This document shows positions 18,014-24,479 of a DNA stretch of 64,000 bases, in pieces. Numbering within the stretch: position 1 is the stretch's first letter; each line of letters starts with the position of its first letter. Source of the stretch: a virus. The notes below the pieces were generated by a model. It saw only the letters and a program-made list of their open reading frames with translations. It was not told where the DNA came from and searched no databases. The stretch lies in the IMG/VR virus record IMGVR_UViG_3300046675_000234, positions 1 to 64,000 of that record; one strand, 5' to 3'. The position numbers and the translations under genes are program-made.

Positions 18014-18895
18014 TCAGACCTTCTTGATGAACTCGACTATGGGCTGGATGATGAACGGCAGCGCAGAGGTGAGCAGGGCGATCAGGTCCGGCACGCCCAG
18101 CCGGGACTCGACGTAGGCGGCGATGAATCCCGCCACGGCACCGCCAGCCTCGATGGCCAGCTTCTTTGCCCTCCGCTGGCCTTCCACGGTCTCGTGCGCC
18201 GCGTTCGCTGCGGCTATCTTGTCGGCCACGACCTGCTGGGCCTTGGTCAGCACCGCCTGCGCCTTGGCCGTAGCCAGCGGCTCAACCTGCGTCTTCAGGA
18301 GCTGCTCGTGGATAAGTTGCTCGCGCCTGGTCGGCTGCACCTTGCCGGATACCTGGAACGCGACCTCAGCCGCCTTGTTCTCGGGTGCGATGTCAGCCGG
18401 GATCTTCGCCGCGATGGCTGCCGGGATCTTCTGCGCTTCCTCGCTCGCCGCCTTCTGCGCTTCCTCGCGGGCGATCCTGCGCATCTGCGCTTCCTGCATC
18501 CGCTTGATCCTGGCCTGGCGGGACCGGGATGTCACCGGCTCCTGCGGCGGCCTGTACCCGGCCCGAGAGCCGGGACTGCCGCCGCCAATCCACTTGCCGC
18601 CCGGACCCCGCCGCTCGTGCATCCAGGCGTCACTGGCCAGCTCGACAAGCTGGCTGACGAGAGTGTCTCCCGCGAGCTGCTGAAGGATCGTGTCCTCGCC
18701 GTTCACAGGCCCAGTATCCAGCGTCCCCGCCAGCCTGTGAAGCATCGTGCCCGCATCCTGGATCTCGGTCAGCTCATCACCGGTCGCGGTGCTGGCCAGG
18801 CCGCGCACCTGCTGGATAGCGGTCTGCACCCGGCCCGCCGGGTCCTCCCAGGCCCACCGGGCAATGCTCAGTGCCTGCTGTCCGCGTGGCGTCAT
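18014..18895 (-). CDS. Modular head-region protein with C-terminal hydrophobic hairpin
   Basis: VELA + HERRGPGGKW tag, coiled coil, two C-terminal hydrophobic helices. Confidence 0.75.
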   Translation of the reverse strand: MTPRGQQALSIARWAWEDPAGRVQTAIQQVRGLASTATGDELTEIQDAGTMLHRLAGTLDTGPVNGEDTILQQLAGDTLVSQLVELASDAWMHERRGPGGKWIGGGSPGSRAGYRPPQEPVTSRSRQARIKRMQEAQMRRIAREEAQKAASEEAQKIPAAIAAKIPADIAPENKAAEVAFQVSGKVQPTRREQLIHEQLLKTQVEPLATAKAQAVLTKAQQVVADKIAAANAAHETVEGQRRAKKLAIEAGGAVAGFIAAYVESRLGVPDLIALLTSALPFIIQPIVEFIKKV

Positions 18896-22638: not shown

Positions 22639-24479
22639 CAGGCCGCCTTGGCGCGGGCCTGCTTCTCCAGCTCGCCCGCCTCGGCCTTGCCAGCCGCCGC
22701 CCGGACCTCGGGATGGACGTGCCCGCCACCGCGCGACCAGCGCCGGATCGCGGCCCGCGCGATGGCGTACGCCTTGCCGGGCGGCATGCCGCGCTTCTCG
22801 ATCAGCGCCTTGACGATCTGCTGCTCGTACGGGGTGTGGCCCATGCCCTTGACGTGGTAGAGCCCCGGCCCGCCGGGCTTGCCGCGCGGTGCTGGCGTGA
22901 CGCTCAGCCTGCCGGTGTTGGCGCTCAGCTCGGTGGCCATCTGGACCTGCTTGCTGCGGGCCTGGGCCAGCACCGCCTGCGCCTTGTTGTGCTGCGGCCC
23001 GCCCTTGCGCAGCTTGCCGTACAGCTTCTGCTTGCGCGTGTCCCCGCCGAACACCTGCGTGAAGCCCTCAGCCTCGCGCTTGGACAGGTGCCTGCCGAAA
23101 GGGCCGGTGATACCCGGCACGCCGGTCATCGCCCGGTTGCGCTCAGCCTGCTTGCTGACGTGGACCCCCTTGCCGCTGCCCTTGGGAGCGAACAGGTTCT
23201 GGAGGCCCTTCGCCTCACGGTGGGAGACGTGGCTGCCGACCATGGCCCTGGCAGCCGATCCGGGCTGGAACTCCCCGTGGCTGAGCTTGCCCTTCTCACC
23301 GGGCATGCCACCGCCCATGACCCCGGCCGCGTCCCGCAAGGAGCGCCTGATCTTGTCGGCCTCCAGCTTGATCCAGCCGTGCCGGTAGCGGAAGGCCAGC
23401 TCAATGGCGTTGTCTATGTTCTCCCAGGAGTACCCGATGGTGGTGGTCAGCTCGCCGGGGTGCCTGACCGTGGACGGGTAGTAGCCGGGGCCGTGCTTGA
23501 TGCCGGGCTGGCCGGTGCCGATGGAGCGCGGTGCCCGCCAGCTCTCGTCCTGGGCGTAGGTGCCCCTCGGCACACCGGACAGGCTGCGGCGGATGCCGAC
23601 GACAACGGCATGGCTGCCGGTGCCGCGTGTCGCGCGCTCCGCGACCGACAGGTGCACCCGGACGCTCTTCATGTCCCGCTCGCCCAGCGCCCGGCCTGCG
23701 TTGTGCAGCGCGTTCGCTGCGATATCGCTGGTTGACCGGACAGATTCCGCTGCTGCCATGATGGCCCGGATGTGGCCGAAGTCACCGGGCTTGCCGGTGT
23801 AGTCGAGTTTCTCCGACCGGGCGTGGTGGCCCGGAGCACCGCGCCGTGCCTGCTCCGAGACGCCCAGCGCCCGGACCAGCCCGGCCCGCTGCGCCATCCG
23901 CATGCTGGCCGTGTTCCGCATCATGCCGGGGATGCCCTGCCACCGGCCCCAGCGGTCGCGCGGCTGTGCCGGGTTGAACGCCAGCTCGACCGCCCCGCCG
24001 TCCTCGTTGGCGAGCTGCCGGATCTGGGTGGTGAGCGCGGCGATCATCTGGGTGATGATGGCCGCCGCCTCCTTGACGGTAAGAACATGCCCCTTGGCCG
24101 GGGCCTTGCCAGCCGGTGCCCCGGCCTTGGCCTGCTTAGCCGACGTCGCCGCCGCGCCCTTCTTGGCAGGGGTCGAGCTGGCCGACTTGCGGTGCACCAC
24201 GGCCTTGCCGGTGGCTGCCGCCGTGGCTGCCCGCTGGGCCTGCCGGGCGGTGAGCTGGTTATGCTCCAGCTCGGCCAGGATCTTGCGCAGCGCCTTGATC
24301 CTGGCCGCCAGCGCGGCCTTCTTCTGCTGGCTCGCGGTCGGCGGCGGCTTGCCCTTGGCCGCTGGCTGGCTACCGGGCGGGGCGAACTGGCCGCCGGTAG
24401 CGGCACCGGCTCCTACGCGGGGCTGGGCCGGGTTGAACAGCTCGATGGCTAGCTCAACTGAGCCCCAGCCGGGAAAGGG
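22638..24479 (-). CDS. Basic modular head-region protein, probably the -1 frameshift extension of 24449-25837
   Basis: Coding-like frame (IELFNPAQPR tag, coiled coil) continues ~280 nt upstream of the first available start codon (GTG 24200). Confidence 0.7.
   Translation of the reverse strand, partial: PFPGWGSVELAIELFNPAQPRVGAGAATGGQFAPPGSQPAAKGKPPPTASQQKKAALAARIKALRKILAELEHNQLTARQAQRAATAAATGKAVVHRKSASSTPAKKGAAATSAKQAKAGAPAGKAPAKGHVLTVKEAAAIITQMIAALTTQIRQLANEDGGAVELAFNPAQPRDRWGRWQGIPGMMRNTASMRMAQRAGLVRALGVSEQARRGAPGHHARSEKLDYTGKPGDFGHIRAIMAAAESVRSTSDIAANALHNAGRALGERDMKSVRVHLSVAERATRGTGSHAVVVGIRRSLSGVPRGTYAQDESWRAPRSIGTGQPGIKHGPGYYPSTVRHPGELTTTIGYSWENIDNAIELAFRYRHGWIKLEADKIRRSLRDAAGVMGGGMPGEKGKLSHGEFQPGSAARAMVGSHVSHREAKGLQNLFAPKGSGKGVHVSKQAERNRAMTGVPGITGPFGRHLSKREAEGFTQVFGGDTRKQKLYGKLRKGGPQHNKAQAVLAQARSKQVQMATELSANTGRLSVTPAPRGKPGGPGLYHVKGMGHTPYEQQIVKALIEKRGMPPGKAYAIARAAIRRWSRGGGHVHPEVRAAAGKAEAGELEKQARAKAA

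Follow-up and report, generated by a model that had tools for sequence, protein, structure and literature searches.

Known effector and capsid-targeting systems

Phages are thought to inject enzymes that disarm host defences. To our knowledge, outside T4 and P1 little has been learned of how such proteins are chosen for the capsid and how they are released. Here we describe a short peptide tag that is repeated within the head operon of the virus in IMG/VR record IMGVR_UViG_3300046675_000234. The record is a complete virus genome of 81,691 bp with direct terminal repeats, and the window analysed here is the 64-kb stretch from position 1 to 64,000. The repeated motif is well supported as the core of a module leader of about 20 residues, [KA]-F-[DN]-P-x-[QE]-P-R-D-x-x-G-R-W-[TS]-x-G-G-G, with a second W-x-H-E-x-R-D flavour. 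It is also well supported that this leader heads each domain-sized unit of head-associated "polyvalent" effector proteins.

Phage-type polyvalent proteins, as described in the main text of Iyer, Burroughs, Anand, de Souza and Aravind (2017, PMC5512222), carry unrelated effector domains in one polypeptide, and their genes lie beside those of portal, terminase and MuF. The domains listed there include zincin-like peptidase, ParB-like, ADP-ribosyltransferase, InPase, zeta toxin and GNAT. The proteins were predicted to be packed in the head, processed by a peptidase and injected (PMC5512222). A protein of the window, p1248, has the same build as described there: four separately homologous modules are found in one polypeptide, with TerL, Portal_Mu and MuF directly upstream and a protease-scaffold protein and the capsid protein downstream. 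The tagged viral proteins share the domain repertoire given for the phage-type polyvalent proteins (PMC5512222). By its sequence, p1248 fits this class. Searching that main text by term brought up no repeated leader or junction peptide. Unlike the polyvalent proteins described there, the units in the window share a tag at each boundary, and the predicted cleavage site is matched to the phage's own head protease, not to an embedded zincin. The tagged cargo would be of the polyvalent, head-delivered effector kind already known; the shared boundary tag and the matched protease site appear to be new.

The T4 capsid-targeting sequence (CTS) is portable to foreign proteins, and the gp21-fold protease cleaves with Glu at P1 (PMC5694885). 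Like the CTS, which is carried by the internal proteins and Alt and is cut by gp21, the tag is a short peptide on head-carried proteins next to a site for a gp21-fold protease. The CTS precedes the cut and is discarded, whereas the tag follows the predicted cut by 2 to 4 residues and would stay on the mature protein. The CTS sequence is unrelated to the tag and is restricted to T4-like phages, while the tag spans many head-gene families and bacterial phyla. By analogy, the tag resembles a CTS with inverted topology. In the giant phages SPN3US and phiKZ, the cleavage motif mapped for the gp21-related prohead proteases (MEROPS S80) is A-x-E / S-x-E (PMC5694885). The strict A-I-E, A-V-E, A-L-E and S-V-E sites of the window match this motif, and the protease has the same fold. 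In contrast to the phiKZ and SPN3US sites, those in the window continue with Leu or Met and then the tag, and their cleavage is predicted.

Encapsulin cargo-loading peptides are short, sit on a flexible linker and direct unrelated enzymes into a capsid-fold shell. They are usually C-terminal, with another consensus and a known binding pocket. The tag is likewise a short conserved peptide with a flexible linker on unrelated enzymes; the consensus differs. Polymorphic toxins carry junction motifs (VENN in CdiA, pre-toxin domains), and MuF-linked toxins were listed as a delivery route (Zhang et al., 2012, PMC3482391). The tag may comparably mark the border before variable, exchangeable toxin domains, and immunity genes are found near the alphaproteobacterial tagged loci (see below). 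It differs from those junctions in sequence and in recurring many times along a single protein. No Pfam pre-toxin family was matched in the window or in the viral or bacterial tagged proteins. Literature searches for written forms of the motif returned nothing of relevance, and a broader one on capsid targeting, MuF and cargo returned known systems only; no paper describing the tag was found.

Seven copies of the tag in the window

The initial annotation had listed seven leader peptides. All seven translate exactly, in the coding frames of four adjacent minus-strand head genes. The strict consensus, F-[ND]-P-x3-R-D-x2-G-R-W, is present in four of the seven only (copies 2, 4, 5 and 6). The copies are as follows (the genes are listed with the head operon below).

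24384..24437, minus strand: copy 1, variant tag FNPAQPRVGAGAATGGQF, where the startless part of p606 begins; VELAIEL before the copy
23940..23978, minus strand: copy 2, strict tag FNPAQPRDRWGRW, in p606; strict site AVEL before the copy (23982-23993)
22555..22590, minus strand: copy 3, W-x-H-E flavour WLHEERDTRGRW, heading the ParB-like module of p1248
21631..21669, minus strand: copy 4, strict tag FDPFEKRDVRGRW, heading the DUF7178 module
20677..20715, minus strand: copy 5, strict tag FDPAEPRDDKGRW, at the head of module 3 (no known family)
19858..19896, minus strand: copy 6, strict tag FNPDELRDRRGRW, at the head of the putative zincin-like module (HETFH, residue 1041)
18590..18625, minus strand: copy 7, W-x-H-E flavour WMHERRGPGGKW, in p293; LVELAS before the copy

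Copies 3 and 7 share the second flavour, W-x-H-E-x-R-[DG]-x2-G-[RK]-W, which is kept in the orthologous modules of relatives. The copy 3 flavour heads the same ParB-like module in the related contig L039, and the orthologues of copy 7 in L039 and L020 retain W..E.RG.GGKW. Copy 1 lacks RDxxGRW and is a variant ending in GGQF. It is kept as its own variant in L039 (FNPAGNPGQARAGAGIATGGQF), in frame with the upstream protein.

The core DNA pattern CGNGAYNNNNNNGGNCGNTGG occurs five times, all on the minus strand and within 19.8 to 24.0 kb; 0.13 ± 0.34 occurrences are expected from 100 dinucleotide shuffles. It is found nowhere else in the 81,691-bp genome, and the reversed control gave zero matches. 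A six-frame search with the regular expression R[DG]xxG[RK][WF] gave six matches in coding frames of these genes. One stray match on the plus strand (25405-25425), opposite the p482 open reading frame (ORF), is taken to be non-coding. The tag is covered by no Pfam, PHROGs or NCBIfam family and is contained in no PDB chain.

Each copy had also been said to precede an unrelated domain. This holds for the four modules of p1248, while the other three copies head regions without a known family. The p1248 modules are as follows.

21616-22596, minus strand: ParB-like module, phrog_2859 region, DGHHR at residue 255
20548-21687, minus strand: DUF7178 module, Pfam E 5.8e-35, residues 374-561
19951-20742, minus strand: module 3, separately homologous, without known family
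18898-19950, minus strand: putative zincin-like module, HETFH at residue 1041, kept in relatives

The HETFH module gave no sequence match in Pfam, NCBIfam or PDB.

Modules move with their tag

BLASTP comparison of p1248 with tagged ORFs of related contigs resolved four separately conserved modules. Compared with the window, the order of two modules is inverted in L039, where DUF7178 (69% identity) precedes ParB-like (71%). The tag flavours have stayed with their modules: DUF7178 carries W[KR]FDPFEKRD.RGRW and the ParB-like module carries WLHEERD..GRW. Module 3 is a separate, smaller open frame of 355 residues in L020 and is joined to DUF7178 in L004; further permutations are found in L054, L023 and L088. 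The tag thus accompanies its downstream domain when modules are reordered, as expected of the portable motif first proposed. The predicted cut site belongs to the unit, since homology already sets in a few residues ahead of the tag. As DNA, the tags are 39-nt repeats with 72 to 87% identity, which are read as reflecting conservation of the peptide.

Spread and conservation of the tag

A degenerate DNA pattern for the strict motif was searched against IMG/VR and gave at least 118 contigs, with 138 in-frame matches among the matches listed, to which the copy counts in this paragraph also refer. Position +4, left free in the pattern, is Q or E in 109 of 109 unique viral copies. Position +5 is P in 61/109 and position +13 is T or S in 86/109, with a Gly-rich stretch after it. 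The Asx-Pro pair (D or N, then P) does not vary in the main flavour. An N-terminal position, one to three residues past the first start codon, is seen for 13 of 119 copies (MAFDP.., MTFNP.., MFNP..); the remaining copies are internal to proteins, as far as residue 1645. An AlphaFold2 model on the tag alignment has pLDDT of 85 for residues 21-30 and 74 for residues 31-40, with flanks below 60, and shows a bridge between R27 (the first Arg) and W33 of R-D-x-x-G-R-W. The tag is predicted from this model to be a small ordered turn on a flexible linker.

A 45-column profile was built from 78 tag copies and searched against 1.84 billion representatives. It matched 4,253 protein clusters at E <= 0.001, of which 651 reach E <= 1e-10. 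Proteins of 1,000 to 3,800 residues are frequent among the top matches (range 472-3,849), with up to nine matched stretches each. With a loose tag regular expression applied to the best 150 of the 4,253, the median spacing between tags is 248 residues (interquartile range 185-366), which corresponds to about one domain per tag. Five of the top giant proteins contain GNAT, HNH, MuF and histidine-phosphatase domains amid much sequence without a family. A profile search with a catalogue of domains and gene positions was among the checks named in the initial annotation. The leader heads unrelated domains in thousands of proteins.

Among cultured phages, an N-terminal tag is found, and is conserved there, in cluster H mycobacteriophages (for example Beckerton, Konstantine and Predator) and Nocardia phage P3.1. 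A tblastn search of cultured phages with a 30-residue tag was too insensitive (E 3-7), yet it pointed to these N-terminal copies. Two genes annotated as "capsid maturation protease", Mycobacterium phage Beckerton gp10 (L122:6019-6792) and a gene of P3.1 (L121:5989-6699), begin with the tag (MSFNPRQPRDRFGRW and MARRKFNPRQPRDLRGRW, respectively). Their products are very basic, about 240 to 260 residues long and without obvious protease features. The protease annotation may be wrong and the products may be tagged internal proteins, judging from their sequences.

Stand-alone DUF7178 genes of cultured Streptomyces phages were considered as tag carriers and rejected: Andris gp77, the one that was translated, lies outside the head genes and has no tag. 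About 25 pattern matches, mostly from Chloroflexi, belong to an unrelated family of about 900 residues with PFDPPPPRDYRGRWGGDL (L140, L141, L144, L145 and about 20 more) and were excluded. We would guess from the sequence that these are GH13-like enzymes, which fit the DNA pattern by chance. Also unrelated, and likewise excluded, were two further matches to the pattern, a Marinobacter family and an Arthrobacter GH43. The Chloroflexi family is a caution for searches by motif alone.

Head-gene context

The window has a G+C content of 64 to 72% (2-kb bins), and the terminase of the closest cultured phage shows at most 34% identity. The minus-strand operon has the order TerL, portal, MuF, p482/p606, p1248, p293, p216, protease-scaffold p400 and capsid protein, as listed here.

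28002-29756, minus strand: TerL, large terminase
26516..28093, minus strand: Mu-type portal protein (Portal_Mu, E 4e-28)
25842..26519, minus strand: MuF / SPP1 gp7-type minor head protein
24449..25897, minus strand: p482, a 482-residue protein directly 3' of MuF; strict sites AIEL 25316-25327 and ALEL 25130-25141
22638..24458, minus strand: p606, a 606-residue reading frame with copies 1 and 2; strict sites 24438-24449, 23982-23993 and 23397-23408
18892..22638, minus strand: p1248, four-module polyvalent cargo protein of 1248 residues
18014..18895, minus strand: p293, tagged protein of 293 residues with a helical body and hydrophobic C-terminal end
17172..17822, minus strand: p216, a 216-residue protein; site SVEM 17691-17702
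15965..17167, minus strand: p400, a 400-residue protein with prohead protease (residues 1-150, T4 gp21 fold) and helical scaffold; site AIEM 17111-17122
14313..15224, minus strand: major capsid protein (phrog_1650, E 7e-72), with small ORFs between the p400 gene and the capsid gene

The viral contigs show the same setting. Upstream on the same strand, the neighbours of tagged genes include large terminases as well as portals from five or more Pfam families; downstream they include capsid proteins of four families and prohead proteases (S78, S78_2 and DUF2213). With terminase and portal upstream and protease and capsid protein downstream, the tagged genes fill the slot between portal and protease/capsid. 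This is the link to head-gene clusters on which the initial annotation had let its proposal depend.

In the same contigs the protein part before the tag is MuF in 7 of 57 cases, a portal domain (three families) in nine and Peptidase_S78 in one; inteins and other cargo domains also occur there. After the tag we found DUF7178, ADP-ribosyltransferases, PI3/PI4-kinase-like domains, MuF, zeta toxin and alpha/beta hydrolase, and further topoisomerase IB, InPase, pentapeptide repeats, ParB_N and zincins. No Pfam family is assigned to over half of the segments that follow the tag. No domain typical of conjugative elements was seen in the censuses of tagged proteins, which are small samples.

Prohead protease and predicted cut sites

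p400 has 894 homologues and was assigned no family in Pfam, PHROGs and NCBIfam scans. Its AlphaFold2 model (36 homologues) shows a confident N-terminal domain, with pLDDT of about 70 to 93 in 10-residue blocks and mostly above 80, and a helical C-terminal half. The top Foldseek match of the N-terminal domain is T4 gp21 (PDB 5jbl chains; E 1.1e-4, probability 1.00, target-length-normalised TM-score 0.54), followed by the HCMV, PrV and KSHV proteases. H74, S118 and H139 are invariant in 36 of 36 homologues and would be the catalytic residues. From the gp21 fold and the helical half it was concluded that p400 is a protease-scaffold fusion.

The strict pattern [AS]-[VILM]-E-[LM] has seven sites (two in p482, three in p606, one each in p216 and p400), compared to about one expected over 5,118 residues. 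None is found in TerL, portal, MuF or capsid protein. Two of them stand directly before tags (AVEL-AFNP and AIEL-FNP). The site in p400 itself, AIEM, lies 16 residues from the N-terminus, and A-[VI]-E-[LM] is present in nearly all of the 36 homologues, which suggests that p400 may trim itself. The initial annotation had placed a putative cut tag before the copies. A strict [AS]-h-E-[LM] is indeed found before two of the seven and a looser form, acidic or hydrophobic, before four (VELAS, MELGW, TDLAH and VLDFR); no such site is found before the remaining one (IFQFAPH). A second repeated motif, ELAFR[YF]RHGWI[KR]L, was observed after two strict A-x-E-L sites (25130-25141 and 23397-23408, minus strand), where it replaces the RDxxGRW tag. 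A related PYHYRHGWIPV is found in two copies in viral contig L056.

At positions -3/-2 of strict tags, [DE][LMIF] occurs in 6/9 copies of relatives with a p400-type protease and in 3/102 elsewhere. In other multi-tag giants the residues before the tag vary by protein (V-K, K-E, D-A). With varying residues before it and a constant tag, the cut site looks specific to each phage's protease and the tag common to all. The predicted sites lie 2 to 4 residues upstream of the tag, so the tag would be kept on the mature fragment, as was first proposed, unlike the T4 CTS.

Tagged loci in bacterial genomes

The same DNA pattern matches more than 120 species-representative bacterial genomes. After removal of the unrelated families, the tagged bacterial ORFs include portals (12/67), MuF and DUF2213. 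Their effector-type domains include Tox-REase-5, RNAse_A_bac, CDI_toxin_EC869_like, PBECR3, Acb1, pesticin and others. A separate alphaproteobacterial family comprises the following loci.

26 loci within L125-L235 (e.g., L126:2230-3477, L131:1958-2500 and L195:5807-7099): alphaproteobacterial family

The conserved N-terminal domain of this family is also found in viral contig L033 (5931-6365), right after the portal and S78 protease, and in L051. No PHROG or Pfam family covers it.

Possible roles of the tag

The initial annotation read the peptide as a portable address label, for docking to capsid, portal or scaffold or for ejection. Such a label would be portable and linked to head genes, as the tag is in the viral contigs. 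A pure address label does not account for the tags retained in portal, MuF and protease fusions, which should need no address, or for the alphaproteobacterial subfamily outside head clusters. We tentatively prefer a reading in which the tag is a handle bound by the protease-scaffold core, loading free units and presenting the sites in fused ones. This is a possible account and we put it forward with reserve, even with the well-supported anatomy counted in. Long cargo proteins would be built into the procapsid core. The operon encodes a string of units, each made up of protease site, tag, flexible Gly/Pro-rich linker and domain. Two to four residues ahead of each tag, the gp21-fold protease would cut at the site of its own clade, which in this phage is A/S-x-E↓L/M or h-[DE]↓L. 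The mature units would all begin with the tag, matching the stand-alone cargo genes that start with M-A-F-[DN]-P. Through this shared handle the protease-scaffold core would take up a unit and bring the adjacent site into place for the protease. The tag would stay on the released unit until exit with the DNA.

Several observations weigh against the handle. Proteins that are themselves fusions with a portal, MuF or protease domain still carry the tag, which a role in capture alone leaves unexplained. The portals, capsid proteins and proteases adjoining tagged genes span many sequence families, so that a single conserved receptor pocket is not obvious. In the approximately 26 alphaproteobacterial loci, a conserved N-terminal domain of 110 to 130 residues is followed by the tag and then by variable toxin ends. 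These loci sit among housekeeping genes, with neighbours that include Imm52 (two hits) and DUF7336 (three hits). They may be orphan toxins using a particle encoded elsewhere; alternatively, the tag may serve delivered toxins more generally. The acidic site is missing at one of the seven junctions of the window, and the clade comparison at -3/-2 gives a Fisher p of 3e-6, a value that ignores relatedness.

Part of this is covered by a signal for exit or for the time after delivery. The tag would then act only on the mature unit, guiding the unfolded protein into the portal/tail channel at ejection, or it would bind a universal factor of the recipient cell (chaperone, DNA or membrane), with no role in loading. 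We consider the two versions together doubtful. One role would fit both the proteins anchored by portal or MuF and the stand-alone proteins beginning with the tag, and it is consistent with a mature unit that starts with the tag and continues into a flexible linker. That the head proteins are of so many families favours a receptor other than a head protein. A role in delivered toxins generally would suit the tagged toxins that lie, with immunity genes, away from phage clusters. The fusions and the constancy of the tag across head families are explained at least as simply as by the handle. On this reading, however, the close and constant distance from protease site to tag would come about by coincidence, from where the domains happen to end.

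The tag could also be a protease exosite only, that is, a primed-side recognition element for cutting junctions with no role in loading or delivery. At most junctions the tag comes two to four residues behind the predicted cut, and it stands between fused domains that need separation; both would agree with this. An exosite is distinctly unlikely, however, given that 13 of 119 copies (among the matches listed) stand at residues 1 to 3 of stand-alone proteins, where there is nothing to remove. The N-terminal copies are conserved in cluster H mycobacteriophages and Nocardia phage P3.1, and five of the seven strict A-x-E-L sites have no tag.

A passive junction without a receptor (a self-cleaving Asx-Pro bond, a hinge or homology for cassette recombination) is very improbable: the invariant D/N-P of the main flavour, the modules reshuffled at tags, the tag before variable toxins in toxin-immunity loci and the 39-nt repeats would be in keeping with it, but the W-x-H-E flavour is conserved at the same place without Asx-Pro (for which reason self-cleavage at this bond was set aside as a general mechanism), nine positions are conserved across phyla of differing codon usage, which argues for selection on the peptide, and repeats with 72 to 87% identity are poor substrates for homologous recombination.

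A broader claim would make the tag a signal for loading and delivery that is universal among tailed-phage capsids, acting also in trans across head-gene families and including alphaproteobacterial orphan toxins that ride prophage or gene-transfer-agent particles. We regard this as unlikely. If true, it would amount to a general protein-delivery code for phages and a ready handle for loading heads with chosen proteins. The tag itself would give a sequence rule by which candidate injected effectors can be listed in any phage genome, including units without a family. It would be a concrete peptide to mutate, to pull down and to fuse to reporters, and it may offer a handle for packing chosen proteins into phage heads. 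The clade-specific protease site set against a universal tag, together with the toxins outside phage clusters, extends the question to protein delivery generally.

Other proteins of the head operon

p216 has no known family. A stretch homologous to it is found directly before the protease match in every relative examined that carries this protease. The C-terminal end of p293 is a long hydrophobic stretch, AIEAGGAVAGFIAAYV...LPFIIQPIVEFI (18014-18200, minus strand), which by its sequence would suit a membrane-active ejection protein.

The annotated p606 ORF has 520 residues and starts with GTG at 24200. The frame is open further upstream without a start codon and overlaps the end of p482. A slippery heptamer, C_CCT_TTC, is found in register at 24473-24479 (minus strand), eight codons before the TAG stop codon of p482. 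A stem-loop within 60 nt after the heptamer has a predicted energy of -28.5 kcal/mol (z = -2.6 compared to shuffles). In the near relative L090 (95 to 98% protein identity), the heptamer and both open frames are retained despite nucleotide changes. In L039 the counterparts of p482 and p606 are one continuous in-frame protein. Because L090 keeps the heptamer and frames and L039 has a single continuous frame, the p482-p606 fusion product is considered to be real, and p482 probably continues into p606 by a programmed -1 frameshift.

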